Shown piece after piece: positions 1 through 15,025 of a stretch of 15,111 bases of DNA; the first letter of the stretch is position 1, and the number at the start of each line of letters is the position of its first letter. Where the stretch lies: positions 1 to 15,111 of the forward strand of contig JAYNIA010000057.1 of assembly GCA_038108555.1 (NCBI GenBank). Direction: 5' to 3'. Made by a program: the position numbers and the translations under genes. Source of the stretch: Nitrospinota bacterium. Lineage in GTDB: Bacteria > Nitrospinota > Nitrospinia > Nitrospinales > VA-1. Under the pieces are notes generated by a model. That model ran no database searches, was not told the DNA's origin, and saw nothing but the letters and a program-made list of their open reading frames with translations.

Positions 1-651
1 GGCTGCAAACTTGGGAAATCTGGGAGCATCCAGAGGGTTATGATGATGAGCGGCTGCTTCTGCCATAAATTCGGGGAGCCTCCAGCTATATAACAATTGT
101 CCTCCAACCTGGGCATGAGAAAAGCCCAACTCTTCCTGCTCTACCTGGTAAAGATGTCTGCCCAGATACTCAGCCCGACTTAAACAAGTTCTGGTTATGG
201 CTACCGCTTGCTGACACAAAACCAGGCTTCCGATATCATGGAGCAACCCAAGTAAATAAAACTTCTCTGTATTGGTCTCGCCAAATAAAGCAGTTATTTC
301 TTTAACCAACAATCCACAAACAATATTGTGCTTCCAAAAATTATCAAGGCTTAAGAGGTCTTTAGGAATCCCATTAAATTTACTCATGACAATGGTTGCG
401 AGCGCCAGATCACCCAATTTATCAATCCCCAGTATATTTAATGCATGGGTGATTGAATCGACTTTTCCAGACAAGCCATAAAACGAGCTATTTACAATTT
501 TTAAAATTCTTCCAGATAGACCGGAGTCTGCCCGAATAATTTCTGCAAAATCCTGGAAAGTACTTTCCGGATTTTGAGTAGCGTCTTTAAGTTTGTGATA
601 TACAGCAGGTGGAGAGGCAACCTCCTGAGTTAATATATCTTCAATCTGCAT
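1..651 (-). CDS. HDOD-domain (HD-related output domain) signal-transduction protein, 3' end runs off the window
   Basis: Absent from the ORF track because it has no stop inside the window. Manual translation from ATG at 651 is open for 217 codons: MQIEDILTQEVASPPAVYHKL...IIRADSGLSGRILKIVNSSFYGLSGKVDSITHALNILG...FWKHNIVCG...YLLGLLHDIGSLVL...EQEELGFSHAQVGGQLLYSWRLPE...AHHHNP. The motifs D..L..R.L..NS..YG, FW.H, GLLHDIG, G..HA.VG and W.LP are HDOD hallmarks. Confidence 0.9.
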   Translation of the reverse strand, partial: MQIEDILTQEVASPPAVYHKLKDATQNPESTFQDFAEIIRADSGLSGRILKIVNSSFYGLSGKVDSITHALNILGIDKLGDLALATIVMSKFNGIPKDLLSLDNFWKHNIVCGLLVKEITALFGETNTEKFYLLGLLHDIGSLVLCQQAVAITRTCLSRAEYLGRHLYQVEQEELGFSHAQVGGQLLYSWRLPEFMAEAAAHHHNPLDAPRFPKFAA

Positions 652-704
652 CTGGCACCCCCCCAAAAAAAAAATATCGGACTGGTAATATTGTCTAGCC
701 TAAC

Positions 705-1508
705 TCATAAAGGGCCTGGAAACAACTCGGAGGTCCGCCCAAGCAACCAGTAATAAACCAGTCCTATCCATTCATAGATTGTGTTTGATGCACCAATAAT
801 TGGGGACAATCGTGGAAGATTCAGCCCAAATTCCACTTTTCCAGTAGTTTTATAATCTACTGGGTAAGGAATAACCTGCCAACCCAATTTTCGAAAAATA
901 CCTACCGATCGAGCCATATGCCAGGCTGACGTGATCAAAATCCATTTTTCTCCCTTTTGCGGTTTCGCAAGTTTTAAGGAATTTTGAGCATTCTCCATAG
1001 TATTTCTTGATTGGGAATCAAAAATCACTCGATCCGGATTCAGACCCATTTGCTCAAAAAATAATTTTGCAGTAAAAGCTGCCTTATATTCCTGAGCAGA
1101 TAAAGCCCCCTGTCCTCCCGCATAGACCAGCTTTGCATCTGGAAACCTTCTTGAAAGACTAATAAAAGTGGTTAAACGTTCGACAGAGTCCGCGAGACTA
1201 ACTTGGCCTCTGATTTTGGTAAGGGTAGGAATTTCCGAGCCACCCAGGACAATCATTCCATCAATCTTTTCCGGGAGAGGCTCAGGAATGGGAAACCGGT
1301 TCTCAAGAGGAACCAGCAACATGTCATTAATGGGTATTAAGCTAAAAAGTAAAATGACAGCGGTGGAAAAAACCACCAACTTCTTTCCAATCTTTTCCCG
1401 GCCAATCAATAACAAAAACACTCCCAAGAGAAGAATCAGAAACAAACTTGTATTTGGAGAAAATATTAACCAAAAGACTTTAGAAATGATCCAAAACAAG
1501 GTGTCCAC
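705..1508 (-). CDS. YdcF/DUF218 (ElyC/SanA-like) membrane protein
   Basis: 267 aa, GTG start with AGGAG RBS. Two N-terminal TM helices, then IVLGG, ER(L), SRNT.ENA, LITSAWHM.RS, YPVDY and C-terminal YEWIGL.YY motifs typical of DUF218. Confidence 0.9.
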   Translation of the reverse strand: MDTLFWIISKVFWLIFSPNTSLFLILLLGVFLLLIGREKIGKKLVVFSTAVILLFSLIPINDMLLVPLENRFPIPEPLPEKIDGMIVLGGSEIPTLTKIRGQVSLADSVERLTTFISLSRRFPDAKLVYAGGQGALSAQEYKAAFTAKLFFEQMGLNPDRVIFDSQSRNTMENAQNSLKLAKPQKGEKWILITSAWHMARSVGIFRKLGWQVIPYPVDYKTTGKVEFGLNLPRLSPIIGASNTIYEWIGLVYYWLLGRTSELFPGPL

Positions 1509-1663: not shown

Positions 1664-1689
1664 TCTATATAAATATTTCTTTATATAGA
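1664..1689. promoter_or_regulatory. 12-2-12 inverted repeat, putative ArsR/SmtB-type operator overlapping the arsM promoter
   Basis: TCTATATAAATA-TT-TCTTTATATAGA, 11/12 symmetric (perfect 10-6-10). It overlaps a candidate sigma70 promoter (TTCCGA 1645-1650, 17 nt spacer, TATAAA 1668-1673) and lies about 95 nt upstream of the arsM start. Confidence 0.55.
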
Positions 1690-1784
1690 TGCCATTTTGT
1701 ATAGAATATAAAGCTTTAAATGGTTTTTTTTTCAAAGAGGGAAGTAAATTTCTTCTACTCTTTTTCGCGTTCAGGAGATTTATT

Positions 1785-2840
1785 GTGAAAACCAGCACTG
1801 AAGTTCGTGAGGATGTTCAAGAGTACTACGGTAAAATTTTAAAAACCAAAAACGATTTGCAAACCAGTGCCTGCTGTGTAGCAGACACGATGCCAGACTA
1901 TCTTCGGGCCTATTTGCCAAATATACATGAAGAGGTTCAGTCTCGCTTTTACGGGTGCGCCTCTACTTTTCCAACAGGACTCTATGGAAAAACTGTGGTT
2001 GACCTCGGTTGTGGATCGGGACGGGACTGTTATCTTTTAGCACAAGTTGTGGGTCCAGAAGGCCTTGTCATAGGGGTGGATATGACGGAAGAACAATTGG
2101 CTGTAGCCAGAAAACATGTCACCTATCACACCAACAAATTCAATCTAGACAAACCCAATGTAGATTTTAGGAAAGGGTGGATCGAAGATCTTTCCACCGC
2201 TAACCTCGAGGACAACTCGGTGGACGTTGTAATTTCCAACTGTGTTATCAATCTCTCCCCTGACAAAGAAAGTGTTTTCAGAGAAATCTTTCGTGTATTA
2301 AAACCCGGTGGTGAACTCTATCTTTCAGATATTTTTACCGGCCGACGGGTTCCAGAACCACTCACCAAAGACCCGGTTTTATTGGGAGAATGTCTGGGGG
2401 GGGCTCTATATACAGAAGATTTTAGACGCTTGCTTGCCAAAGTAGGCTGTTTGGATGTTAGAACCATTTCTAAAACACCCATTACATTAAACAATGAAGA
2501 TATCCAACGCAAAGCGGGGATGATCGACTTTTACTCTATGACTGTAAGAAGCTTCAATTGTGATTTTGAAGATATCTGCGAAAACTTTGGTCATGTCGCC
2601 TATTATCAAGGGTCCATTCCTGAATTCCCACACGGATTTACCCTGGACAATCACCATTATTTCCAAACGGGAGTCCCAGTTCCAATTTGCGGAAACACTT
2701 ATAAAATGCTTAATGAATCACGGTTCTCAGAGCATTTCAAATTAACCGGAAATTTCTCCACCCATTATGGTCCGTTTGACTGCAGTGTCGTGACCCAACA
2801 AGAGGGGATTCCTTCCAATGGAAACGGGGCCTGTTGCTAG
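1785..2840 (+). CDS. arsM: Arsenite S-adenosylmethionine methyltransferase (AS3MT/ArsM type)
   Basis: Start reassigned to GTG 1785 (AGGAG RBS at 1773-1777, in frame with the 1689 ORF), giving 351 aa. Motifs: VQEYYGK.L....DLQTSACC, IHEEV..RFYGC, SAM motif I VDLGCGSGRDCY, GVDMT, VISNCVINL, LKPGGELY.SD, GECLGGALY and C-terminal CC. All four As-binding Cys positions known from AS3MT/CmArsM appear present. Confidence 0.88.
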   Translation: MKTSTEVREDVQEYYGKILKTKNDLQTSACCVADTMPDYLRAYLPNIHEEVQSRFYGCASTFPTGLYGKTVVDLGCGSGRDCYLLAQVVGPEGLVIGVDMTEEQLAVARKHVTYHTNKFNLDKPNVDFRKGWIEDLSTANLEDNSVDVVISNCVINLSPDKESVFREIFRVLKPGGELYLSDIFTGRRVPEPLTKDPVLLGECLGGALYTEDFRRLLAKVGCLDVRTISKTPITLNNEDIQRKAGMIDFYSMTVRSFNCDFEDICENFGHVAYYQGSIPEFPHGFTLDNHHYFQTGVPVPICGNTYKMLNESRFSEHFKLTGNFSTHYGPFDCSVVTQQEGIPSNGNGACC

Positions 2841-3075: not shown

Positions 3076-4332
3076 ATGCGAGAACGTTCTGGAAAATCGA
3101 TTGCTTATAAACTTGCACTAATTTTGTTTGCTATGATTCTGTTTCCCCGACCGGGTTTCAGCGAACAAGAACCCATGACCACCCTAGGGCAACTTATAAA
3201 AACCATTTCCTACTCGCAACCGGAAAACCCTTTCATTCCAAATGAATCAGAATCCATGTCCCCGGAAAATTTATTTTCTTTTATTCAAACTAAAATGAGC
3301 AATAAGGGAATTCACTTGCTGGAGGGAAAAGATATGGAAACCCCTCTTTCAAATCTGGAGTTTCTTAATATTGTTTATGCATTTTCTGGAGGCCCCCAAA
3401 ACTCAAACCTGATAAATAAAAAACTTTTTTTAAAAAAGAATGGTTTTATTTCTTCTACAGATATTGGTTTGGCAACTGAAATAAAGGGCAGCGTAACCCA
3501 ATACCACCAAAATTCTTCTTTTGGAAAACCGATTACCCTTGCTTCACCCCTTTTCCAGTTTGACGAAATCCGCACCGAGCGCAAAAGCCGCGTTGCTTTT
3601 ACTCTGGATGATGAAAGTCGAGTGATTTTAGGCGGTTCTACAAACATCTCGATGGATAAAAACATATACAATCCAGAAAACAGGTTTAGAAAAATGCTTT
3701 TTCACCTGACGGAAGGAATGGCCCACTTTGTAGTTTCAAAAGCGATGAAAAAAGGTTCTACTTTTGCAGTGGTAACTCCAAATGGAATAGCGGGGGTACG
3801 TGGTACAGAATTCGTTACCATAGTAGAACCTGGGGGAAAGACCCGTTTCGTAGTACTGGAAGGTAAAATAGAAACCGCACCGATACTGTCCAGGGGAAGG
3901 CTGGGAGTCCGTACGTTTATAGGGGCCGGTGAGATGCAAACATTAAGTGAAAAGGGCCGGGCTTCTATTGTCCAGAAAGCACCAAAGAAACTTCTCGACC
4001 GGTTACAAAAAAATTCGATCGTTAAAAAGAAACTTAACCATCCAAAACTTTTGAGAAAATCCAGCTTGCCTAACAAAAAACTGGATTCAAACAAAAGGAC
4101 AAAAAAAGCAAAAACCGATTTCAAACAAAATGGAATGGCTCAGGACGCATTAAAACAGGCTTGGACAGGAAAGCGAAATCCAATGCCCTCTTCCATAGAC
4201 CGGGACACACTAAAACCTTTTAAAAATATCTCCAATCCCTCCCAACTGGATCGTTTCAAATCTAATTACCAGAAACGCATACCATCTCAAGCCTTAAACC
4301 AGATGAAACGACAAGCCCAGATTCATCCCTAA
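3076..4332 (+). CDS. Exported FecR-domain protein with Lys-rich low-complexity C-terminal tail
   Basis: 418 aa, GGGGAG RBS. Sec-type signal peptide (..LILFAMILFPRPGFS-E). FecR-fold motifs: DEIRT..SR..FTLDDES.V.LG..T, L.EG, F.V.TPNG.AGVRGTEF, VLEG. About 110 aa basic tail. Confidence 0.8.
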   Translation: MRERSGKSIAYKLALILFAMILFPRPGFSEQEPMTTLGQLIKTISYSQPENPFIPNESESMSPENLFSFIQTKMSNKGIHLLEGKDMETPLSNLEFLNIVYAFSGGPQNSNLINKKLFLKKNGFISSTDIGLATEIKGSVTQYHQNSSFGKPITLASPLFQFDEIRTERKSRVAFTLDDESRVILGGSTNISMDKNIYNPENRFRKMLFHLTEGMAHFVVSKAMKKGSTFAVVTPNGIAGVRGTEFVTIVEPGGKTRFVVLEGKIETAPILSRGRLGVRTFIGAGEMQTLSEKGRASIVQKAPKKLLDRLQKNSIVKKKLNHPKLLRKSSLPNKKLDSNKRTKKAKTDFKQNGMAQDALKQAWTGKRNPMPSSIDRDTLKPFKNISNPSQLDRFKSNYQKRIPSQALNQMKRQAQIHP

Positions 4333-4419: not shown

Positions 4420-4695
4420 ATGGCCAGCAGGTATCTGGATATTTTGTGCGGAAAATGTGGAGGCTTTATTTTGCGTTACCGGAAGGAAGGTTCAGGACAG
4501 TTGATTCGACTGTATCTGGATAAAATACTGGAGCCCAAATCGTTAGCTTCCCTAAAGTCCCTTGGAAGCAAATCCAATCTCCCTCCATTGGTTTGTTCCG
4601 ATTGCAACCATCCCATTGGACATCCCATGGAACACCAGGGAACCAGGTTAGCCTACCGAATGATTAAAGGCTCGTTCAAAAAATCCCCAAACTGA
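4420..4695 (+). CDS. Small putative zinc-ribbon protein (CxxC...CxxC), function unknown
   Basis: 91 aa, strong RBS. CGKC and CSDC pairs with an LRY.KEG.G.L.RLY.D.I core; fills the gap between flanking genes. Confidence 0.75.
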   Translation: MASRYLDILCGKCGGFILRYRKEGSGQLIRLYLDKILEPKSLASLKSLGSKSNLPPLVCSDCNHPIGHPMEHQGTRLAYRMIKGSFKKSPN

Positions 4696-4721: not shown

Positions 4722-5987
4722 TTAAGCATCCAACGTCAGGTTGCCTTTAGGAACGGCAATACAAGCCAGGCAAGACCCTTCTTCTGGTGGGGAACCCGGC
4801 TCACCCACGTAGGTCACTTCACCATTTTTAATGGCCGTGAGACAGGTACCACAATTTCCCGCACGGCAACCCGAATCCAAAGGGATGCCATTTTTCTCAG
4901 CGAATTCCAACAGCGAGGTGGCACTTGGATTCCAGGCAAGAATTTTTCCTGACTTGGTAAAGCGAATATCAATTTTGGGAGCCTGCTCTTTATCAGAATC
5001 AGTTTTACATTTTTTAACAGTAGCCGGTCCAAAAGCTTCAAAGTGGATATTGGCTTTTGGGACTCCCCAGGAAGCCAAGTCGGCACGCAAATCCTTTACC
5101 ATTGGAGGTGGTGCGCATATGTAAAAATCATAATTGCTGGAAGGCAAAAACGGTTTGAAGTTTTCAACCGTAACTCTTCCTTCCACATCATAGTCTGTGC
5201 CCTTTACATCTGATTCTTCCGGAGAACTGTAAAAAATCTTTAAATTCACATTGTTATTTTCTTTGGCAACGTTTTCAAGATGCTCCTTCATTACATGCTC
5301 TTTTTTATTTCTGACTCCAAGAAAAAACCAGATTTCCCTTTGGGATTCAATTTCTACCAGTGCATTTAACATACTAAGAAGCGGGGTAATTCCAACACCG
5401 CCGGCAAGTAATACAATGGGACTTTTTTCAGTCATGTTTAGACAAAAATGGCCGCTCGGGGCTTTAACATCGACGATGTCATGTTCGTTTAAATTGTCAT
5501 GAAAATAGTTGGATGCCAGGCCTGCAGGGGCATTCGGCTCATCTCTGGGAGGAAGAACCCTTTTAATTGAAACTCGATAGCGCTCAGGATGATAAGGGCT
5601 GTCAGATAACGAATAGCAACGAACTACTGGTTGTGCTTGCCCTTGAATATGCAATTGAAAAGTCAGGTACTGTCCCGGGATAAAGCCAGGCAGCGGTTTT
5701 CCATCATGGGGAGCTAGATAGAAAGAAGTTATGTCATGCGTTTCTTTAACTTTTGAAGCAATGCGAAACTTTCTAAATCCATTCCAGGAGCGCCTTGCCC
5801 TCTCATCCTCAAGCCGTTTGGCTTCCATGATTTGTTCAACGCGAGCCTTTAACAACTCTGATTCCAGATTTGTTCTATCCTGGTTGATTGCCAACGCACG
5901 GGAATTATTTGCAATAAGAATCAGCACATAGGCCACAAGGCTTAAAAGAAATACCAACGCGATAAAACTGATAGCGATATTTAACAA
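4722..5987 (-). CDS. Membrane-anchored FAD/NAD(P)H-binding FNR-like reductase with C-terminal [2Fe-2S] ferredoxin (PDR/PaaE/Hcr-type architecture)
   Basis: TTG start with AGGAGGAGG RBS, 421 aa. N-terminal TM helix plus charged helical linker. Motifs: PGQYL, RCYSLS (FAD), GLAS, P.G.F, AGGVGITP (NAD), YICAP, HFEAFG, then CRAGNCGTC...LAC (plant-type [2Fe-2S]). Confidence 0.9.
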   Translation of the reverse strand: MLNIAISFIALVFLLSLVAYVLILIANNSRALAINQDRTNLESELLKARVEQIMEAKRLEDERARRSWNGFRKFRIASKVKETHDITSFYLAPHDGKPLPGFIPGQYLTFQLHIQGQAQPVVRCYSLSDSPYHPERYRVSIKRVLPPRDEPNAPAGLASNYFHDNLNEHDIVDVKAPSGHFCLNMTEKSPIVLLAGGVGITPLLSMLNALVEIESQREIWFFLGVRNKKEHVMKEHLENVAKENNNVNLKIFYSSPEESDVKGTDYDVEGRVTVENFKPFLPSSNYDFYICAPPPMVKDLRADLASWGVPKANIHFEAFGPATVKKCKTDSDKEQAPKIDIRFTKSGKILAWNPSATSLLEFAEKNGIPLDSGCRAGNCGTCLTAIKNGEVTYVGEPGSPPEEGSCLACIAVPKGNLTLDA

Positions 5988-6027
5988 AATCCTCCTCCTT
6001 TAGACAACATGACTTTTCTATAAAAAA

Positions 6028-7914
6028 TCATTTTAAACGTTCCGCTATTTGTTTATTCCCAGAATGCATTTTCTTTTTAAATCCAGGATCGAGATGATAC
6101 ACATGACAAGTTTGACAATCCTGAACTATCTGGGATTCGGTATGACATTGAACACATGCTTTCCTTTTTATCGATGCAAAGTTGCTGGACCAGTTCGTTG
6201 CATCAAAACTCTTAAACGAAGCCATATATTCTGCCTTACCATCTAAAATATGGCAATTGGAACAGGAGCTGGTTTTTCCCATTATTTCTATGTGGCTGGA
6301 ATGGGCATATTGGGAATGGGGTCGGTTATTTACATCCTTGTAACGCCATTCGACTTTCAGCTCCTTATTTCCCTCGGCATCCGCTAACTCACTCACAGCA
6401 TGGCATTTAACACAGCCTCCCACACCTTCTTTAGGTGAAATGACCTGATCTCGCATTGCAACTGCACGAGCTTCCTTATCGCCATCTCCCTCCTTTGAAG
6501 ATACTGCCAGGGCAAACTCCACCCAGGCTTTCGCAACCGGATCACGATGCCCCATCGGTTTATAACGAACCTCAAGCATGTCCGCATACCAACCGCCAAA
6601 TTTTGCCTCAACGGGAGGTTCATATTCCAGGTTCAAACCCCACGAACAAGCGGCACGTTTCAGAACCTCTGGATTCAACCCGGTTAAAAGTTTGTGAGCC
6701 ATAGGGGTTTCGGTTTGGGTGTTTATCAAATCCTCAACTGAGAGAATACTATCTTCCGTCATTGCCATAATCAGCTCTTGCAAAGGCTGCTCATAAGTTT
6801 CCGGATCGTCTTCAGGAACATCCAGTAGAAAAGTACTGATCAAAGCTGGCATTTCAGTAGAGACACTGAGAAATTCCTCCTCTGCTTCATGGGCAGGAGA
6901 ATTACAAGCCTGCGTTAATGCTTCATGGTCAATATGATTTTTCATAAACTCAGGAAGGCGCAATAAAACCATCTCTTTCTTCTTTATTTGGGAGCCATGA
7001 CAATCAGCACAAATCTTTTCAAACGCCTGAGGCCTTACCTCCCTATCGGACAAGGTCACCTGATGACAACCAATGCAAGAAGAAGGGGCCTTCTGTGTAA
7101 ATTTGGGATTTTCAAAATGTTTATTTAAATGCGATCCGTGATCAAACTTAATCGAATTTCGGTTGAAATAGGGATACTTTTCAGGAAACTCAGGATGCCC
7201 CTTTGTAAAACTTTCAAATTTGTTTTTATGGCAAGTGTTGCATTGGACACTGGTCGATTGCAATGTGCTCATCCTTTGCCCATTGTGTTCCCGATGACAC
7301 ATAATGCATTCGGTTTTCATAACTTCCCTGCCCTTTGCCAGATCATTGTTATGCGGTATCGAATCAGGGCCCCCAAAAGAATGGCAGTTTACACAACTAA
7401 CTGAAATATCTTCCCGGGTAAAAACTGCTTTAATCCAGCCTACCGGGCCCTTACCATGAGCAGAGTGACAAGAAGAACAGCCCTGCGTTGCAGTAAATTT
7501 TTCATGGGCTTTGGATAATGGACCGGCATCTGAAATACTGACGAACCCACCGCCATCAGGATTTAAAGCCTGTGACGTAGCGAGTAATGCAAGAATGGCT
7601 GCCACAACCAAAAGGGAAATCTGGCCTCGGTTTGCCCGAATCGTTTTCCTCGGAGCACAAGGAGGACGTTGCCAGGAGCATTCCCCATTGGGTCCCGGTC
7701 CCTCTTCACAAGAACCTCCGTAACGTTTTTCGCGGCGACACGACCAGCGCCCTTTTTTAAAAAAAGGCTCACAATCCTGAGTTCCCCCGCAACTGCCATC
7801 TATTTTTGGCCCCTTGAAACAGGGAGTTCTCCATAGAGCCCCTCTTCCGCAACGGTAAGGGAAATTGGGCCTCTCATAAGGGCTTTTATCGTGATCGAAT
7901 TTATTTTCGTCCAT
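6028..7914 (-). CDS. Membrane-anchored decaheme c-type cytochrome with N-terminal Cys-rich cytoplasmic domain
   Basis: 628 aa. Ten CxxCH motifs (CSSCH, CVNCH, CIMCH, CNTCH, CIGCH, CADCH, CVKCH, CSNCH, CVQCH, CQTCH) and c3/c7-like FDHGSH and YAHSSH distal-His motifs. TM helix at aa ~99-117 is preceded by 8 non-heme Cys. ATG directly abuts the upstream TAA. Confidence 0.9.
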   Translation of the reverse strand: MDENKFDHDKSPYERPNFPYRCGRGALWRTPCFKGPKIDGSCGGTQDCEPFFKKGRWSCRREKRYGGSCEEGPGPNGECSWQRPPCAPRKTIRANRGQISLLVVAAILALLATSQALNPDGGGFVSISDAGPLSKAHEKFTATQGCSSCHSAHGKGPVGWIKAVFTREDISVSCVNCHSFGGPDSIPHNNDLAKGREVMKTECIMCHREHNGQRMSTLQSTSVQCNTCHKNKFESFTKGHPEFPEKYPYFNRNSIKFDHGSHLNKHFENPKFTQKAPSSCIGCHQVTLSDREVRPQAFEKICADCHGSQIKKKEMVLLRLPEFMKNHIDHEALTQACNSPAHEAEEEFLSVSTEMPALISTFLLDVPEDDPETYEQPLQELIMAMTEDSILSVEDLINTQTETPMAHKLLTGLNPEVLKRAACSWGLNLEYEPPVEAKFGGWYADMLEVRYKPMGHRDPVAKAWVEFALAVSSKEGDGDKEARAVAMRDQVISPKEGVGGCVKCHAVSELADAEGNKELKVEWRYKDVNNRPHSQYAHSSHIEIMGKTSSCSNCHILDGKAEYMASFKSFDATNWSSNFASIKRKACVQCHTESQIVQDCQTCHVYHLDPGFKKKMHSGNKQIAERLK

Positions 7915-8721
7915 TTAATTAAAGAAAACCTGAATAACAATTAAGTGCCATATCACCATTGTCATAACAGCCGCCGCCAAAGGCACATGAACAAGCAACC
8001 AGTTTTTCAACATGGTTTGCAAAGAATAATGGAAATCAATTTTCCGTTTTGTTTCTGCGAGAGCAAAAATTTGTTCCAGATATTCACGCTCCGCCTGATT
8101 TAAAAACCTTTCCAGAATGGAACACTGCTCTTTTACCCAGGTCTGTGCATTTTGCCCCCCAAAGATATTATTAAGGAAAAATCGAGGACGCTGAAAAAAC
8201 CAACCCAATGTTTCCAAATAATGTTGTGCAAGGGTATCACTCCCTGTTTTTTCAGTACACTCCAGAACCAGCCTTTCTGCCTTATTCCTTATTTCTGCTA
8301 TATCCCTTGGAATTCGCTCATAGATACATTCAAGACCAATTCGGGTTAAAAGATGCGGATAAACCTTTTCTATAATCAAACCCACAATTCCTGACAAAGT
8401 GGTTATATAAAATAGAATGGAAAGAATCTGAACATACAATCCTTTGGGCCATAAAACTCCTGCATGCAACCAGAATAAAAAAAGGGCAAGAAACCCAGTC
8501 ACCGTATGGAGCAAAAACCATTTATGGGCAGGCCATAGAGGAAGAAAAGGCAAGCGCTTACGCAGATTGAACAAGCATAAAAAGAAAATAATGAAAAATA
8601 ATCCGCCACCACTAATAAACTCGGGATAGCCGAGGGAGTCTTCTACTTTTAATGTCCAAACCCAAACAAGAACAAAATAGGCAATGGCAAAAGCAATGTA
8701 ACCCCATAATTTTTTCATCAC
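7915..8721 (-). CDS. Putative diheme cytochrome b membrane subunit (ferric-reductase/NOX-like TM domain)
   Basis: 268 aa (GTG 8721 or ATG 8718; TAGTGATG overlap with upstream stop). Five hydrophobic helices. Two intramembrane H-x13-H pairs (H72/H86 and H245/H259), RKR after TM2, and a ~120 aa soluble loop before the last helix. Confidence 0.75.
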   Translation of the reverse strand: MMKKLWGYIAFAIAYFVLVWVWTLKVEDSLGYPEFISGGGLFFIIFFLCLFNLRKRLPFLPLWPAHKWFLLHTVTGFLALFLFWLHAGVLWPKGLYVQILSILFYITTLSGIVGLIIEKVYPHLLTRIGLECIYERIPRDIAEIRNKAERLVLECTEKTGSDTLAQHYLETLGWFFQRPRFFLNNIFGGQNAQTWVKEQCSILERFLNQAEREYLEQIFALAETKRKIDFHYSLQTMLKNWLLVHVPLAAAVMTMVIWHLIVIQVFFN

Positions 8722-10439
8722 TAAGCCCCCATATCTCCACCCCAGGTCACATCTCTAAAATCCACTCTATTTAATGCATCATGGGGGCATGCAAAAGCGC
8801 AGGCAGGACCTGTGACCTGGTCAACACAAAGATCGCATTTTGTTGCTTTGATAATGGGTTTATGATTTTGCGGATCTAATATAAGTTCCCCTTCATCATC
8901 ACGAATGGAAACCATCCGAATATTTGAATAGGGGCAGGAGTTTGCGCAGGTCTCGCACCCTATGCAAGTGTCGTCATTGATAACAACCATTCCGCCTGAC
9001 ATCGTGCGATGAATCGCACCGGTAGGACAACCGATCATACAAACCGGGTCCGCACAATGCATACATGCATTGGCCACCATCCAGTTCTGGAATGTTTTTC
9101 CATGCCTGACAAACCTTGGGTTCCCATCGTGTGTTGCAGAACACGCACGGACACAATCATCACAGCGTACACACCGATCCAGATTAATCAACATCGCCTG
9201 GGTGCCGTTGACGAAACGCTCTTGAACCGCCCATTCCTGCAATGCACCTTCTGCCAGAGTCTGGTTAAAAAAATCCTGCAACCTTCTGCGTCTGCCCTGA
9301 TCTGGTTTGCCGTCCCGGGTTCCCCCAGGTCTTCCTGACTCCCAATAGGCAAACAAATGTTTCTCAATCGTCTTTGTGGGAACGCGCAAAACTTCTACAT
9401 AGCCGAGGGCGGTAATTGTTACCTTTAGACTGACGTTCAACTCACCTTTCCAGGCTCGATAGAGTTCATCGGCACCATAAAAATCTCCAGCTCCGAGATA
9501 GGTAATCGTTTGTCTTCCATTCCCTCTTTGCACGGAGACCCTTGCAAATCCCGCGCGCACCATCAATACTCCGTCAGGATACGTTCCTTCCAGAGTAATC
9601 TCCGGTTCATCTTTAACCCCTTCAATCCGGTCCTGCCCCTGCATTTTTTTATAGGAAAGATGCCAGTCAAATGTTCCGTAAGTTTCAAAGAGGGTATTAT
9701 CTGCAACCTCCTGAAGGTCATCATTATCCAGGTGAGAAAAAATGGAAGTGGCACCCAGGTGGGCTTTGAGAGCATTTTGGCGATAACGTTCATCGATCAA
9801 TCTTCGCCATCCCTGGTCGTATTTTCTAAACTCCCTGAGCCCTTGCCATCTTATTTCTAAAAGTTCTGAGTCCGATTCAGAAAATACGGTGGAAGTTCTG
9901 GGTGTTCTCCCCAGGGCAGCGAGTTCCCCAAACAACGCACCTTCATTTAGAATTGCAGTTTTATTGGAATCTAGAATGGCGGGAACATCCTGGAGAAAAA
10001 CGTGGGTGGAACCAGGATCTTTGTTTTCACGAAGCCCAGCTTTTTGATCGTAACGCTGGACATCCCTGAACTCCGGGGACTTCTTTTGCGTCCACAATTG
10101 TTTCAGGGCTTGCCAAAAATTTTTTTTCTGGATTTTCCTACGGCCCAGCATCTCACCGGGAAGTCCAGGGGCCAACACCACACGTAAGGACCCGTTGAGA
10201 ACCAGAAACGCTGAATTGCCATAATCCCCTTCACGTATGACAATGTCGCCCGCTTTGTAACGCATGATCCGGGCATCGTTTCTTAGTATCCCGGCAAGCG
10301 AAATTCGAGTCGGGAACTTATCCGCTTCAATGGCTCTAATTTCAGGAATGCCCAACAAGCGTTCAACATCCGCATCCGTCATGTCGGAGCCAAACGGCTG
10401 ATCCCAACGCTGTGGACGTGACTGGGTTGTGATAGTCAT
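8721..10439 (-). CDS. Cytoplasmic fusion of two cyclic-nucleotide-binding (CAP-fold) domains with a DmsB/NrfC-type 4x[4Fe-4S] domain
   Basis: 572 aa, GGAG RBS, no signal peptide. cNMP domain 1: GDIVIREGDYG..AFLVL.G...FGELAAL...PRTST. Domain 2 is degenerate: EG.YPDGV.MVRAG...YLGAGDFYG. Sixteen Cys in CVRCDDCVRAC, CMHCADPVCMIGCP, CIGCETCANSCP and KCDLC...PACAFACP. Confidence 0.9.
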   Translation of the reverse strand: MTITTQSRPQRWDQPFGSDMTDADVERLLGIPEIRAIEADKFPTRISLAGILRNDARIMRYKAGDIVIREGDYGNSAFLVLNGSLRVVLAPGLPGEMLGRRKIQKKNFWQALKQLWTQKKSPEFRDVQRYDQKAGLRENKDPGSTHVFLQDVPAILDSNKTAILNEGALFGELAALGRTPRTSTVFSESDSELLEIRWQGLREFRKYDQGWRRLIDERYRQNALKAHLGATSIFSHLDNDDLQEVADNTLFETYGTFDWHLSYKKMQGQDRIEGVKDEPEITLEGTYPDGVLMVRAGFARVSVQRGNGRQTITYLGAGDFYGADELYRAWKGELNVSLKVTITALGYVEVLRVPTKTIEKHLFAYWESGRPGGTRDGKPDQGRRRRLQDFFNQTLAEGALQEWAVQERFVNGTQAMLINLDRCVRCDDCVRACSATHDGNPRFVRHGKTFQNWMVANACMHCADPVCMIGCPTGAIHRTMSGGMVVINDDTCIGCETCANSCPYSNIRMVSIRDDEGELILDPQNHKPIIKATKCDLCVDQVTGPACAFACPHDALNRVDFRDVTWGGDMGA

Positions 10440-10547
10440 CCATCCACTCCTTCAGGTATAAAAAATGAAGCCTTAAAGGCTATTCTGTTTGAAACCCAAT
10501 ATCTACCTCTAAGCTGCTCAACAAGCGCTTCTAATTTTAACCAGAAA

Positions 10548-11522
10548 TTATTTATAATCTCCTTTGGCTGGGAGCTTGCTTCCTACCGCACCCGTCAGAT
10601 CCTTACCCGCGATAGCTGCTGCCAACTTCAAAGCATTTTCCCGGGTTGGGGAAGCCAACAGTTCTGCAGCTTCTGCAACACCAGAAAGAGCAGCCCTGGC
10701 ATTTTCAGCACGTTTTTTTTGCGCCTCAATATATTTGGCCTCTTTGGATTTTGACATGACGCTCGTTGCCGAAACCAAAGCCGCTGCCTGACCTATCACA
10801 AAAAACTCAGCCTGTTCCTTAGGAGTCATTTCTGCATTTGTTTTCATATTCGGAGGATAGTGTCTGTGTCGGACGGAGCCCTGTGAGTATTTCACCAATT
10901 CAAAATCAGGGTTGATGGGATGTCCCGCTCCCAGCATTTTTGCAAGGTCGTCTGCCTTCAAATTAGGATTGGCAAGCCCGTGACAGGTCATGCAGTTTTC
11001 TGCCACTTCATACTTCATGGTGGGCCAGATCAAACCAGCGGCTTTTGAGTCGGCAATTCTTTTGGCTTTATGATCAGCAGATTCCGCTTCTCTTTTTACA
11101 TCCTTGCCACCATAATTATCATGAATTTTCAACCAGTCCGATGAAGGCCCGTGACAGCTTTCACAAGAAGTACCTGATTTTGCCTGGGGTTTTGCTCCTG
11201 CATCTTTTTTCTCAAGAGTGTAATGGCAAAGATAACAAGTTTCGTTTCTCTTCATTCGTTTTTGACCACCCACCGCACTCAAAATCTTTTTAGGGGAAGG
11301 TTTACTTGAGTCTTTGGGCTCCCGATGAACCGTACGAAAAGACGTATAATGTTTTGTTTTTTCCCAGATCTTAAACTCTTCTTCATGGCATTCTTCGCAA
11401 AGCTTGGCGCCTCTCACAAAAGCATCAGCGTTCACCACAGAAGGCATGACAAACCCTGCGGCCACTACCCAGCCCAAAAGAAAAAGGAAAGCTAAATTAA
11501 AACAATTCTTATCTGGTTTCAT
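10548..11522 (-). CDS. Periplasmic tetraheme cytochrome c (c554/c-552 family N-terminal fold)
   Basis: Probable start ATG 11522 (AGAGGG RBS; ORF track starts at 11546), giving 324 aa. Signal peptide ends near VNA-DA. Heme motifs CEECH, CYLCH, CESCH, CMTCH. GA..C..CH......W..TKH and G.SCESCHGP signatures; Ala-rich helical C-terminal domain. Confidence 0.85.
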   Translation of the reverse strand: MKPDKNCFNLAFLFLLGWVVAAGFVMPSVVNADAFVRGAKLCEECHEEEFKIWEKTKHYTSFRTVHREPKDSSKPSPKKILSAVGGQKRMKRNETCYLCHYTLEKKDAGAKPQAKSGTSCESCHGPSSDWLKIHDNYGGKDVKREAESADHKAKRIADSKAAGLIWPTMKYEVAENCMTCHGLANPNLKADDLAKMLGAGHPINPDFELVKYSQGSVRHRHYPPNMKTNAEMTPKEQAEFFVIGQAAALVSATSVMSKSKEAKYIEAQKKRAENARAALSGVAEAAELLASPTRENALKLAAAIAGKDLTGAVGSKLPAKGDYK

Positions 11523-11591
11523 AGCACCCTCTCTAAAAAAATACATCTATCTTTATGTTTTATTGATTTCGGTGATTTATTTTTAATTCGC

Positions 11592-13004
11592 TTAAAACTG
11601 GTAACGGATTTCTGTTCGAATGGTAGAGCCATCATTACGCTTTTCCAGAACCGAGTAAGAAGCGTCAAATTGCCATTGGATCCGGTGAGCCAGTCTCTGC
11701 CGAAATTCAAAACCAAAGGCGACATCATCAAATCCAGCACCCCCGATATCTTTCCGGCTGGCGATTTCAAGAGTTAAACTTCTGCGATGGTCTTCCCAAA
11801 AAGCCTCATAACCAACGACCAAACCTGCGACATCGGTGGTGAAGTTATTAAGCTCTGATAAAAAGTTACCAACCCCGGGTGAGGCGAACAGAATTCCCAA
11901 TCCACCCAGCGCTCCACCAACCACCGGTTCCCGGCCTGCCTGCGTATAGTTTCCGTCCGCAAGAAAGGCGTTTACATAAGCAATATCATCGGAGCCGTGA
12001 GGTGTCCATGAAACTTCTGAGGTATATATGGTTCCCGTGCCTGCTTTAGGACTGTCTGCCCCTGGTTCAAAGGAGGCATTTATCCGGAAAGCCGTGTTGA
12101 AATGACCGATCCTTTGAATGGCTGCAACACCAAAATTAAAACTATCTCCGGTGGTTTGCTCGTCCTGGATGGCGATCATATCAATATTAATCGTATGACC
12201 GGGAGTGTCAATTGAGTTGAACCATCCGAACAAATCTGCAGATCTATTCAAACGGGCGTTGGCCCGGTTCAACTCATTCCAGCCATAAACAAAGGTACTT
12301 CTCATTCCCGAAATTCCTGCAAAACGAATATTATTTCGAACGATTCCCACGGCATCAATCGTTTCATTAATCATGATGGCATTTTGAAACGTGAAGGCCT
12401 GCCTTCCCACAGAGAAACCCATATCAATTGGTTTTTTTCCTATCGGATCCAGCCCTGGAAACAGACTTCCAAAATCACCCTCGAAAAACAAAGTCCGTAT
12501 ATTTAAATTGGGTTCAATTTTACTAGGGCCAAAATCATCATTGAGCTGAACCCGGGTAAACCGGTTAAACTCATTTCTGTCCAGGGGACGCACCCCAATA
12601 ATTAGTTTTTCTGTGTGGGTTAACTGAAGATTGGCAAAGAGGCTGAGGCGCGTTGCCCATTCTGCAGATGAAGGACGAACCCCATTATCAAAATAAAACA
12701 AGGAAGTTCGAAGCGTACCAAAAATCCATAATTGAGGCTGCCAGACAGCACCCCAGGGAGTTTCAAAACCTTCCTGCAAATTACCCGTGCCAAGAAACAG
12801 GTCACCCCCCTCGTAAATCAGGGGTGGTCGGTTCCCAGTATCTGAAGGTTCCTTAAGTTGAATTTTTTCATCAGAGAAACGACTGACGCCGAAAGACTCA
12901 CCCAGGGGATAGAGGTCACAAAAAGCAGGTGGCACAAAAGCCAAGAAAAAACCCGTAACCAGAACGCATAACAAACCCAATCGTCGTTTAATGCCGTTTC
13001 CCAT
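11592..13004 (-). CDS. Outer-membrane beta-barrel (porin-like) protein
   Basis: Probable start ATG 13004 (GAGGAGG RBS; ORF track starts at 13028), giving 470 aa. Sec signal peptide (..FVPPAFC-D). Many alternating amphipathic strands (LSLFANLQLT, FNTAFRINAS, VAFGFEFRQ, WQFDASYS) and C-terminal IRYQF BAM-type beta-signal. No heme motif. Confidence 0.75.
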   Translation of the reverse strand: MGNGIKRRLGLLCVLVTGFFLAFVPPAFCDLYPLGESFGVSRFSDEKIQLKEPSDTGNRPPLIYEGGDLFLGTGNLQEGFETPWGAVWQPQLWIFGTLRTSLFYFDNGVRPSSAEWATRLSLFANLQLTHTEKLIIGVRPLDRNEFNRFTRVQLNDDFGPSKIEPNLNIRTLFFEGDFGSLFPGLDPIGKKPIDMGFSVGRQAFTFQNAIMINETIDAVGIVRNNIRFAGISGMRSTFVYGWNELNRANARLNRSADLFGWFNSIDTPGHTINIDMIAIQDEQTTGDSFNFGVAAIQRIGHFNTAFRINASFEPGADSPKAGTGTIYTSEVSWTPHGSDDIAYVNAFLADGNYTQAGREPVVGGALGGLGILFASPGVGNFLSELNNFTTDVAGLVVGYEAFWEDHRRSLTLEIASRKDIGGAGFDDVAFGFEFRQRLAHRIQWQFDASYSVLEKRNDGSTIRTEIRYQF

Positions 13005-13060
13005 CAACACTGCCCTCCTCCAAAGCAATGGCTAACCTGCCAAATCTTTCAAAAAATTAA

Positions 13061-15025
13061 TTAATTGAAAATATCCAGTATTGAATCAAGAAATGAGGTT
13101 TGCATTACATTTCCCCCACCCTCAACATCAAAAACGAGTTCCTGGCTGGCAAGAACTTCATAACCAGCTGCAACCTTTTCCACTACTTCCCTTGCACTCA
13201 TCGCGTAATCAAATCCCCGATTCTTGATAGCTCCAATCAAATTGGCTGGTGCCATTCCGGCAACGAAATCAATTTTAGCTTTATATGGACCTTTACCCGT
13301 CAACAAATCTCCATCGACCTTATATTTGGCCCACTTGGAATCCAGAGGAGCAAGACTTCTTCTGTTGATTCTTTCGACAGTACTTTCCCCAGTCAAAATA
13401 AGAGACCGTGTCGTTGGCCTCAGGAAAGGAATCGTTGTGACGGGATAAGGAACCGGGATAACCCGTTCCCTCTCTCCCCCACGGCTGTTGAACACAAGAA
13501 AACGACCGCGGAGATCAAACAACTGGTCATCTAAAGGCAAATCGCCATTAATAACGTAAGCCGACTCATGATCTCGCACATCAAAGTTGGGATCATAGTC
13601 ACCAGATTTGAATATTGCTTTGCCCGTGCTGTCTGTAACAGTTACCTGCAGGAAGACAAGCCGCTCAGCCGCAAACCCTGTGGGGACATTATGTCCGTCT
13701 GTCAGGTTTTCCACTTTTACTTTAAAAGCAAGCCCACCTTTATCGTTCCGGGTAATTACCGGTTTCCCCAGTTTATAGCCATTGTTTAGCACTTCCAGAC
13801 GTTTTTGCCTGACCCATTCCAAACGCTTAAACTGAACTTTCAAGATATCACGAGCATCATAGCGGTCGTCCACAGATTCCCAACGTGATGGGAATTTCAT
13901 GTCGCTTGTAACTTTATTTTCGAATTCATCCGTTCCCCAACCCGCTTCGTAATCAAACTGCAACCATTCCCTCATTGTTGCCAGTTCCTGCGCTTCGACA
14001 TTGTGAGGGAAAATACCAGGATGAACCACTGAGTAATCGGGTCCTGCAAAAATATGGTTAGTCAATTTCCTGGGTTTGGTTTCTTTTCCCCCAACAATAG
14101 CGGCGGGCCCTTCTTCATACCCGGAGGGAATTCCCTGGACTTTTCCCATATGACAATCTTGACAGGTGGTTCCTTTTTCTGCTGCAGGTGACATTCGATA
14201 TTCACTGAATGCTTCTTCCAGCCGAATACCGTTCAACAAGGTCACATCATGACATTGGCCACAGAAAGTCGAACTGGAAATAGGTTCAAACTTGAAAGCT
14301 TTGGTATGGATTTTTCGACCGGGTTTTCCTTTTTCGGTAACGACTCGATATTCATCTGTATTATCCAATACCCGTTTCAGCTCTTGCCCGCCTGAAGGTC
14401 CATAAACCGGTGCCAGCAAATCCCCTTTCTCAATTGCCAGGCGACCACTACGCTTGTTGTAAACTTTGGTGGTTCGATGACAGGCAATACAGGTAATTCC
14501 TTCGCGGGAGGCCGGGTGACGGTCCAAATTAGAAATAAAAGGACTTTCGTTTAAATTTGCTCCAATGGGAGTGTGGCAGCGAAAACAGAAATCACCATTG
14601 GTTCCACTGGTAATTTCGTTAATAAAACTGCTCATGGAAAGATAAACAGGACTTAACTGTGCATAAGAATGTTGTGAAACCGACCATTCTTTATAGTGTT
14701 TTGGATGACACGTCGCACAGGTCGTAGCTGATGGGTAATCATTTTCAACGAATAGGTTCGCATGCTCGGCTGCAGCCACTGCTGCAATGTCTCTCTCTCC
14801 GTCAGCCTCACCCTCTTTCTTCATTTCCCCCTTCATCTCTGAAGAAGATTTGGATTCCATGGCTTTTTTATCTTCGGACTTTGCCATCATTTCCGACTTG
14901 CCAGAATCTTTCTGGGACATAGTAGCCGGAACATTTTTGTTACAGGAATAAAGAAAAACGATAGAAAGGATAGTTAAAACTAATGGAAGGAAACTTTTTC
15001 GATTCCCATGCGCACTCAAAGCCAT
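13061..15025 (-). CDS. Pentaheme c-type cytochrome lipoprotein (c554-like N-domain, C-terminal GHxxPTG beta-rich domain)
   Basis: 654 aa. Lipoprotein signal (FLYS-C28, Asn at +2) and Met/Lys/Glu/Ser-rich tether. Heme motifs CATCH, CFRCH, CIACH, CGQCH, CQDCH. W..SQH and EGITC..CH c554-family signatures; V.VENLTDGHNVPTG...RL.FL.V.V.D..G domain. Confidence 0.85.
   Translation of the reverse strand: MALSAHGNRKSFLPLVLTILSIVFLYSCNKNVPATMSQKDSGKSEMMAKSEDKKAMESKSSSEMKGEMKKEGEADGERDIAAVAAAEHANLFVENDYPSATTCATCHPKHYKEWSVSQHSYAQLSPVYLSMSSFINEITSGTNGDFCFRCHTPIGANLNESPFISNLDRHPASREGITCIACHRTTKVYNKRSGRLAIEKGDLLAPVYGPSGGQELKRVLDNTDEYRVVTEKGKPGRKIHTKAFKFEPISSSTFCGQCHDVTLLNGIRLEEAFSEYRMSPAAEKGTTCQDCHMGKVQGIPSGYEEGPAAIVGGKETKPRKLTNHIFAGPDYSVVHPGIFPHNVEAQELATMREWLQFDYEAGWGTDEFENKVTSDMKFPSRWESVDDRYDARDILKVQFKRLEWVRQKRLEVLNNGYKLGKPVITRNDKGGLAFKVKVENLTDGHNVPTGFAAERLVFLQVTVTDSTGKAIFKSGDYDPNFDVRDHESAYVINGDLPLDDQLFDLRGRFLVFNSRGGERERVIPVPYPVTTIPFLRPTTRSLILTGESTVERINRRSLAPLDSKWAKYKVDGDLLTGKGPYKAKIDFVAGMAPANLIGAIKNRGFDYAMSAREVVEKVAAGYEVLASQELVFDVEGGGNVMQTSFLDSILDIFN

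Follow-up and report, generated by a model that had tools for sequence, protein, structure and literature searches.

The window studied here, the whole of the 15,111-base contig C57 (JAYNIA010000057.1, assembly GCA_038108555.1), carries a complete copy of a seven-gene porin-cytochrome cluster; its host is a marine bacterium that belongs to Nitrospinota, a phylum of nitrite oxidisers. According to its gene content and motifs, this cluster matches subgroup II of PCC4, as defined by He, Barco, Emerson and Roden (2017; PMC5566968), and equally matches ptdABCDEFG, as named by Elbon, Stewart and Glass (bioRxiv 10.1101/2023.11.21.568154), both of them described from genomes. An earlier note on this DNA had presented the cluster as undescribed, which these two sources contradict; the cluster itself is already known, and what is added here is the link between PCC4 and ptd, evidence from a gene fusion, the class of the barrel and a predicted open heme. 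Furthermore, whereas earlier work interpreted the cluster as a wire for iron or manganese, we propose with moderate confidence that its products form an outward chain, driven by NAD(P)H, whose end point is a pentaheme enzyme in the periplasm that receives its substrate through the barrel. If this holds, presence of the cluster should not count as a sign of extracellular electron transfer, and nitrogen-cycling bacteria would offer a new multiheme enzyme for testing.

Probable identity of the cluster with PCC4 and ptdABCDEFG

Seven minus-strand open reading frames (ORFs) fill positions 4722-15025 of the window (Table 1), with gaps of 32, 45, 108, -1, 0 and 40 bases in the direction of transcription, and the 19 CxxCH motifs are shared out among the pentaheme, tetraheme and decaheme proteins (5, 4 and 10), so that both the tight linkage and the motif count of the earlier note stand. 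The contig ends only 86 bases upstream of the first gene, ptdA, and a promoter and terminator scan gave no excess over the shuffle level, with 16 sites where shuffled sequences had 16.2 and 11 where they had 12.9. Every component is single-copy in the genome, except for a distant pentaheme on contig C41, and the closest named homologues of the barrel belong to Nitrospinae, Nitrospina and Nitrospinaceae. The scan of Pfam and NCBIfam confirmed the reductase and the cyclic-nucleotide-binding (cNMP)-Fer4 families and gave c554-type matches for the penta- and tetraheme proteins, while no family was found in it for the barrel or the membrane protein.

PCC4 was defined by a porin accompanied by cytochromes with 4, 5 and 10 hemes, and by an inner-membrane protein of five helices with WX3HX13H on transmembrane helices (TM) 3 and 5 and SGXXG on TM4; in subgroup II the genes are co-directional and a PF13247 Fe-S gene lies directly upstream of the membrane-protein gene (PMC5566968). 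The window holds the porin and the three cytochromes, a membrane protein with W68/H72/H86, W241/H245/H259 and SGIVG at 110 (residue numbers refer to full-length proteins throughout), and a PF13247 gene (39 bits, cut-off 26) at -1 base from it. A further redox gene is also shared, but it sits upstream of the tetraheme gene in PCC4 (PMC5566968), whereas in the window this reductase gene comes last. It lies upstream of the tetraheme in the relatives L040, L046, L050 and L061 and in 14/14 subgroup-I loci, and its placement in the window is a positional variant of PCC4, not a missing part. Nitrospinota are not named in the available text on PCC4.

The preprint of Elbon and colleagues lists seven products and calls their function completely unknown, and all seven (7/7) correspond one-to-one to those of the window: a pentaheme with a beta-sandwich and c552 homology (PtdA), a porin (PtdB), an FAD/NAD(P) oxidoreductase (PtdC), a tetraheme (PtdD), a cNMP-FeS protein (PtdE), the ferric-reductase-like PtdF and a decaheme (PtdG). 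The window differs in its gene order, A-B-D-E-F-G-C in the direction of transcription, in the membrane anchors found on PtdC and PtdG, and in the Cys residues of PtdE, which suffice for four clusters, whereas the preprint says two. The available preprint text contains none of 'PCC4', 'He et al' or 'Nitrospin'; its host list has 'Nitrospirales' and not Nitrospinota, an entry that may already include the Nitrospinota lineage. We also collected 14 loci from the 65 pentaheme-positive genomes in the family of L086 (Hyphomicrobiaceae), taking more divergent matches on long contigs, and all of them (14/14) displayed the subgroup I layout of He and colleagues: the genes are divergently transcribed, an Fe-S gene is absent, and the reductase gene precedes that of the tetraheme; one had a split decaheme, and the reductase domain order was Fer2-FAD-NAD in the 4/4 scanned. 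Since homologues reproduce this layout so consistently, the names PCC4 and ptd most likely denote a single system, as judged by matching descriptions and layouts and not by the authors' own sequences.

In the literature, the name ptdABCDEFG was found in the preprint only, and no functional study of the cluster was found for Nitrospina/Nitrospinota or Hyphomicrobium, subscription papers lying outside the search. Among the 120 matches listed, none was named Hyphomicrobium, Oceanospirillum or Zetaproteobacteria, and contig Ga0066848 was not among the 80 metagenome loci retained. Two further candidates for the same system, PCC_1 of Manganitrophus (with a dodecaheme) and the karst PCC groups with FNR genes, were rejected, as the available descriptions give them a different architecture.

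Table 1. Genes annotated in the window, the seven cluster genes first in order of transcription
Feature	Positions	Strand	Remarks
ptdA, pentaheme cytochrome c, c552/MccSep (ExtKL) family, Ig-like C-terminal region, 654 aa	13061..15025	-	5 CxxCH; 5ZE8 E 9e-12
ptdB, outer-membrane beta-barrel, 478 aa, C-terminal Phe	11592..13028	-	AlphaFold model with 18 strands; Foldseek OprD/Occ/AlgE/MOMP-like
ptdD, periplasmic tetraheme c554-like protein, 332 aa	10548..11546	-	4 CxxCH; 1BVB E 4e-4
ptdE, cytoplasmic cNMP-binding protein with DmsB-like 4x[4Fe-4S] domain, 572 aa	8721..10439	-	PF00027, PF13247
ptdF, PCC4 inner-membrane protein, five helices, 268 aa	7915..8721	-	two WX3HX13H; SGxxG at 110
ptdG, membrane-anchored decaheme with N-terminal 8-Cys repeat domain, 628 aa	6028..7914	-	10 CxxCH; TM 94-112
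ptdC, membrane-anchored FNR-type FAD/NAD(P)H reductase, C-terminal [2Fe-2S], 421 aa	4722..5987	-	PF00970, PF00175, PF00111
91-aa CxxC...CxxC zinc-ribbon-like ORF	4420-4695	+	no family
FecR-domain protein	3076-4332	+	weak LipL45-like matches
SAM methyltransferase, Cys-rich ends	1689-2840	+	resembles ArsM
DUF218 protein	705-1508	-	
HDOD protein	1-666	-	cut by contig end

Distribution and gene order

A profile search of GTDB with the barrel yielded 283 confirmed loci, the best 80 of which were retained for analysis; gene content was counted in the 32 with at least 9 kb on both sides (hereafter well-flanked), the other 48 being excluded for short flanks. The full set of seven genes was present in 26/32, the cNMP-FeS gene alone was missing in 5/32, and one locus (L031) had the pentaheme, barrel and tetraheme only. 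The genes are thus co-conserved, as the earlier note had supposed, with changes of order that proceed by blocks: at least five different orders were seen, and in many genomes the blocks lie on opposite strands, yet they remain neighbours in 31/32 well-flanked and 14/14 subgroup-I loci. The pentaheme gene is directly upstream of the barrel gene in 77/77 loci with room to see it, and ptdD travels with either block. Because motifs and genes are conserved in both Nitrospinota and Alphaproteobacteria, the cluster is not a chance association.

The cluster is common. At E <= 1e-50, and with divergent paralogues included, the pentaheme was found in 32/120 genomes of the host phylum, 30/69 of the host family and 0/21 of family f2, and it occurs in 65/201 genomes of the Hyphomicrobiaceae-centred family to which L086 belongs; most of the hosts found are Nitrospinota and Hyphomicrobiales. 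Comparison of locus neighbourhoods revealed no eighth conserved gene beyond synteny among close kin or at family level, and a plasmid search with the barrel gave no match.

Probable electron entry and the inner membrane

PtdC comprises FAD_binding_6, NAD_binding_1 and C-terminal Fer2 domains (Pfam) with intact RxYS, GGxGxTP and Fer2 motifs, and bears an N-terminal membrane anchor, a hydrophobic stretch being present in 53/62 homologues, whose charges suggest an N-out orientation. Its gene occurs in 31/32 well-flanked loci, in many relatives upstream of ptdD, and at the level of gene content the reductase is a core part of the system. PtdE combines cNMP domains with 16 Cys in four groups, all of them (16/16) invariant in 46 aligned sequences, and its first cNMP pocket (F170-G171-E172...R181) is also conserved, so gating by cyclic nucleotides is possible. 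Conversely, no full-length orthologue was found elsewhere in the five genomes that lack ptdE at the locus, and PtdE is therefore, by genomic evidence, an accessory and dispensable part that is absent in some lineages. In three divergent paralogue loci (L093-L095, 3/3), a single ORF of 864-880 amino acids (aa) directly upstream of the membrane subunit reads Fer2-FAD-NAD-cNMP-Fer4; this fusion connects NAD(P)H with the chain of Fe-S clusters and renders likely the cytoplasmic NAD(P)H input that the earlier note had put forward.

PtdF has five hydrophobic segments, and its AlphaFold model (predicted local distance difference test, pLDDT, 92) shows five membrane helices with a long helical insert. 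The two WX3HX13H motifs are retained in 51/53 homologues and SGXXG in 48/53. From the positive-inside charge bias, PtdF is N-in, with TM3 and TM5 both running in-to-out, which places H72 and H245 on the cytoplasmic side and H86 and H259 towards the periplasm. PtdF thus has the membrane-spanning His pairs of TM3 and TM5 that characterise ferric reductase domains, and two b hemes are predicted between these helices as a path across the membrane. A ferric-reductase-domain pattern in the PCC4 membrane protein, and the lack of a gene for an extracellular cytochrome, had already been pointed out by He and colleagues (PMC5566968). The arrangement resembles Fre-MsrQ-MsrP and the bacterial NADPH oxidases (NOX) in its cytoplasmic NAD(P)H flavoprotein, bis-heme membrane protein, TM3/TM5 His pairs and periplasmic acceptor; however, ptd displays five helices, a long cytoplasmic helical insert, Fe-S relays and multiheme acceptors, and the proposed likeness is one of function.

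The decaheme PtdG is anchored N-in by TM 94-112 and has ten conserved extra His; the tetraheme PtdD, which resembles cytochrome c554 (Table 1), has four that are invariant in 56 sequences (H66, H142, H209 and H227). Owing to these residues, both look like pure carriers with a fully bis-His appearance, as far as ligands can be read from alignments, and PtdD is a likely redox partner of PtdA. As in MtrCAB, MtoAB and PioAB, genes for a decaheme and a beta-barrel share one cluster; unlike in those systems, the decaheme is anchored in the inner membrane and scores far below the MtrA/DmsE family (TIGR03508, 32 bits against a cut-off of 192), the barrel has 18 and not 26 strands in its model and gave no match to the MtrB family in Pfam or NCBIfam, and there is no CymA, so that the statement of the earlier note that the cluster contains nothing like MtrA, MtrB or CymA holds. 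Searches of PDB sequences with the barrel profile, the decaheme and the membrane-subunit profile returned nothing significant.

A separate trait of PtdG is a region before the anchor (residues 22-86), predicted to be cytoplasmic, with two tandem four-Cys repeats (C-x9-C-x2-GP...C-x5/6-C). It is present in 33/47 full-length homologues, is absent from 13/13 subgroup-I decahemes, and gave no Pfam match and no usable ESM Atlas match; it may possibly represent a Zn or Fe-S domain of a new type.

The barrel and the pentaheme protein

The AlphaFold model of PtdB has 18 long strands, and its top Foldseek matches were MOMP (5LDT, E 1e-12), OccD/OccK, chitoporin and AlgE, in comparison with the 26 strands of the MtrB barrel (PMC7198977). 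On its outer side, conservation is concentrated in loop L3 (0.87) and in the 40-residue loop L7 (0.78; 19/40 near-invariant), whereas the other loops range from 0.43 to 0.66; on the inner face, turns T1 and T2 and the N-terminal extension are conserved, and no conserved His or Cys was found in PtdB. L3 and L7 are the constriction loops of OprD channels. The model and this conservation pattern predict a channel that is selective for solutes and has a partner in the periplasm.

PtdA is the most conserved subunit, with 56% identity to alphaproteobacterial homologues as compared with 29-46% for the others (31% for the decaheme). It aligns with Thermochromatium tepidum c552 (5ZE8) across both the heme and Ig-like regions (Table 1), and weakly with MccSep (9WT8, E 0.02), and it shares with them and ExtKL the five-heme and Ig-like domains, the CxxCHM at heme 5 and the GHxxPxG motif; in the ESM Atlas only unnamed c554-type clusters were retrieved. 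Further, the MccSep/ExtKL cluster contains a porin gene, extI, in the way that ptdB lies beside ptdA. MccSep reduces polysulfide in the periplasm; four of its hemes are bis-His, whereas heme 2, close to selenocysteine (Sec) 325, has a Cys ligand (bioRxiv 10.1101/2025.11.18.688581). In PtdA, by contrast, a Leu (L269) aligns with this Cys ligand (C239), Phe or Ser-Leu occupies the Sec site (F451 opposite U325), the mature protein has no Cys outside CxxCH, the chain is ~200 residues longer, and the partners differ.

Only four His outside the motifs are kept in 29 divergent PtdA sequences, three of them invariant (H119, H324, H445) and one with a one-column shift (H240); R149, Y121, E270 and R552 are conserved in the same set. 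With four distal His for five hemes, one heme is likely to lack a His sixth ligand, and the alignment places the predicted open site at heme 2. As to location, the earlier note had described PtdA as a lipoprotein of the outer membrane: its lipobox (LYSC28, with Cys28) and charged linker are real, but a loose lipobox pattern occurs in only 27/66 ORFs of homologues, a set that includes fragments, and an ordinary signal peptide is present in many, so that the outer-membrane location is not established. The remaining compartments and cofactors named there agree with the domains, hemes and barrel recovered by Pfam, motifs and AlphaFold/Foldseek, apart from its omission of the PtdC anchor.

Proposed electron path and alternative explanations

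In the chain that we propose, electrons would pass from NAD(P)H to FAD and [2Fe-2S] in PtdC, then along the [4Fe-4S] chain of PtdE, an optional and possibly cyclic-nucleotide-gated step, across the inner membrane by the two b hemes of PtdF, and through the decaheme PtdG and the tetraheme PtdD to PtdA; heme 2 of PtdA would hold an open coordination site beside the periplasmic mouth of PtdB, to which PtdA would bind, and a small soluble substrate entering via PtdB would be reduced there. Outward flow from NAD(P)H is likely because the reductase is core to the system and, in three paralogue loci, fused to its Fe-S protein, and because PtdF has a heme-ligand topology like that of NOX and MsrQ. It would also be favoured by the membrane potential, which helps electrons outward over two hemes. 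A precedent is the route from NADH through Fre and MsrQ to periplasmic MsrP (PMC12525009), and, by analogy, the presence of a proven enzyme, MccSep, in the PtdA family counts for an enzymatic end point. Such a chain would cost energy instead of conserving it, as Fre-MsrQ-MsrP and split NADPH oxidases do, and its role would therefore more likely be detoxification or conversion of a substrate than respiration. As to that substrate, the leading guess is a nitrogen oxide, drawn only from host ecology and from speculation in the preprint.

Several observations weigh against this proposal. For PtdF, Foldseek gave no match at E <= 0.001, the top rows being unrelated helical sensors; the row of highest probability was SpNOX (0.92, 111 columns), with E 0.77 and ranked below those sensors. 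Comparison by hhalign with E. coli MsrQ, FdnI, HyaC and CybB stayed below 3% throughout (MsrQ 0.4%) and was uninformative; weak Pfam matches of 39 PtdF members lean to cytochrome b561/Ni_hydr_CYTB (16; best E 0.01) over Ferric_reduct (PF01794; 3), with 20 to DUF4405, and the five helices contrast with the six of ferric reductase domains. The PtdB model is of moderate confidence (pLDDT 70, below 50 in L7). PtdA lacks the catalytic Cys and Sec of MccSep, its catalysis is argued from a missing ligand and from four conserved residues (R149/E270/Y121/R552), one of which, E270, could supply the sixth ligand, and the pentaheme family has nanowire-like relatives (PMC11976967). In L028 and L031, ptdAB(D) occurs without an adjacent membrane module. 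NAD(P)H would be costly for a nitrite oxidiser, and the proposal is built from genomic data.

The earlier note had left a choice between extracellular electron transfer and reduction of a substrate admitted by the porin, and it is the second option that probably fits better, although only moderately so; the evidence disfavours a wire through the outer membrane, the barrel being an 18-strand channel type and the pentaheme belonging to an enzyme family. Export from NAD(P)H through the barrel, with PtdA delivering electrons to Fe(III), Mn(IV) or other surface acceptors, includes the iron-reduction option of Elbon and colleagues and would agree with a porin accompanied by 19 c hemes, with wire-like, apparently fully bis-His carriers, with the lipobox of PtdA in the window, with the structural relation of its family to an archaeal cytochrome nanowire (PMC11976967), and with high ptdAB transcription in oxygen-deficient water (bioRxiv 10.1101/2023.11.21.568154). 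We nevertheless consider it unlikely, since the barrel is much narrower than the 26-strand MtrB sheath, has a conserved 40-residue loop and offers no heme ligand, its outer loops other than L3 and L7 are variable, the lipobox is not general among homologues, an extracellular cytochrome gene is absent, as He and colleagues also remarked, and NAD(P)H electrons leaving in this way would conserve no energy. The opposite direction, modelled by He and colleagues, has PCC4 take electrons from Fe(II) or Mn(II) at the porin and feed them through the membrane subunit into the quinone pool, with the reductase as a side branch. PCC4 was first found in four Zetaproteobacteria and in a Hyphomicrobium from a pyrite-oxidising enrichment (PMC5566968), a narrow channel could pass soluble Fe(II), and the weak b561-type matches of 16/39 PtdF members point the same way. 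However, a quinone-only scheme would have no need of an NAD(P)H reductase, yet this gene is almost always present and in some loci is joined to that of the Fe-S protein; the prevailing hosts are not known iron oxidisers, and electrons moving inward to NAD(P)+ would have to climb in potential and oppose the membrane potential in a system that lacks an ion-pumping part. The paper on the closest solved relative also calls it low-potential in the title. Our evidence speaks for export, driven by NAD(P)H and directed to an enzyme in the periplasm, and uptake appears improbable.

A further possibility is that no continuous chain exists, and that an enzyme-channel module, PtdAB(D), draws on the periplasmic or quinol pool while PtdC/E/F/G forms a redox valve of its own that links NAD(P)H and the cytochromes of the periplasm. 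The blockwise rearrangements onto opposite strands, the solitary ptdAB(D) of L028 and L031, and the existence of porin-less clusters of a cytochrome, a membrane protein and a redox protein (He et al., 2017; PMC5566968) are what two loose modules would produce; their persistent adjacency through at least five orders, and a ptdD that moves with either block, as a linker would, speak against it, and we regard this arrangement as improbable too. In its most extended and speculative form, which we consider unlikely as a whole, the NAD(P)H-driven proposal would describe a split, cyclic-nucleotide-gated, NADPH-oxidase-like exporter, and not an extracellular wire, that powers a new class of open-site pentaheme enzymes behind their own OprD-type channel; in marine nitrite oxidisers, Hyphomicrobiaceae and the Alphaproteobacteria of oxygen-minimum zones, these would be periplasmic reductases of a nitrogen oxide (NO or nitrite), the 8-Cys domain of PtdG would be a new metal-binding relay or sensor, and PCC4 and ptd would be one widespread machine.

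Other roles were considered and rejected. Replacement of assimilatory nitrite reductase was discarded, since many ptd-positive genomes (e.g., G001, G004, G010, G066, G067, G069, G076, G078, G081, G089 and G095) encode a second NIR_SIR protein of 530-560 aa, which we infer to be NirA. A link to nod was not seen, PF22085 having matched in 0/5 alphaproteobacterial hosts. Reductive iron uptake was set aside on reasoning that the system itself would need ~39 iron atoms and that genes for iron uptake are not linked to it.

Related clusters and neighbouring genes

Divergent clusters of a second type were found in the bacterial order of the host (L093:3777-13245, L094:3311-15224 and L095:3616-13200). 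They encode a c554-like protein with three CxxCH plus CX4CH, a short decaheme and a barrel only 22-24% identical to PtdB; L094 has two tandem pentaheme genes, and some genomes contain both cluster types. In Nitrospinaceae, L025, L026 and L031 hold a pentaheme, a barrel and an extended tetraheme (412-535 aa) with no adjoining membrane module, and the genome that contains L013 has another ptdAB pair, L028.

In the window, the cluster is flanked by five further genes (Table 1), including a methyltransferase that resembles the arsenite methyltransferase ArsM; this ArsM-like gene lies near the cluster in 7 Nitrospinota loci. Elsewhere in the genome, there is a DMSO-reductase-II-type ORF of 1176 aa, consistent with an NxrA label, and other multiheme genes comprise adjacent 10- and 11-heme ORFs (C10:44741-49953, minus strand) and the C41 pentaheme (C41:485-2348, minus strand), which is 26% identical to PtdA and lies beside a triheme. 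Finally, in three related genomes (the L193-L196 set), a gene that we label NirA-like and an FNT-type (NirC-like) transporter gene lie ~9 kb beyond ptdC, and in G066 the same pair is found ~25 kb from ptdA; the intervening genes are unrelated, and this proximity is probably synteny only.

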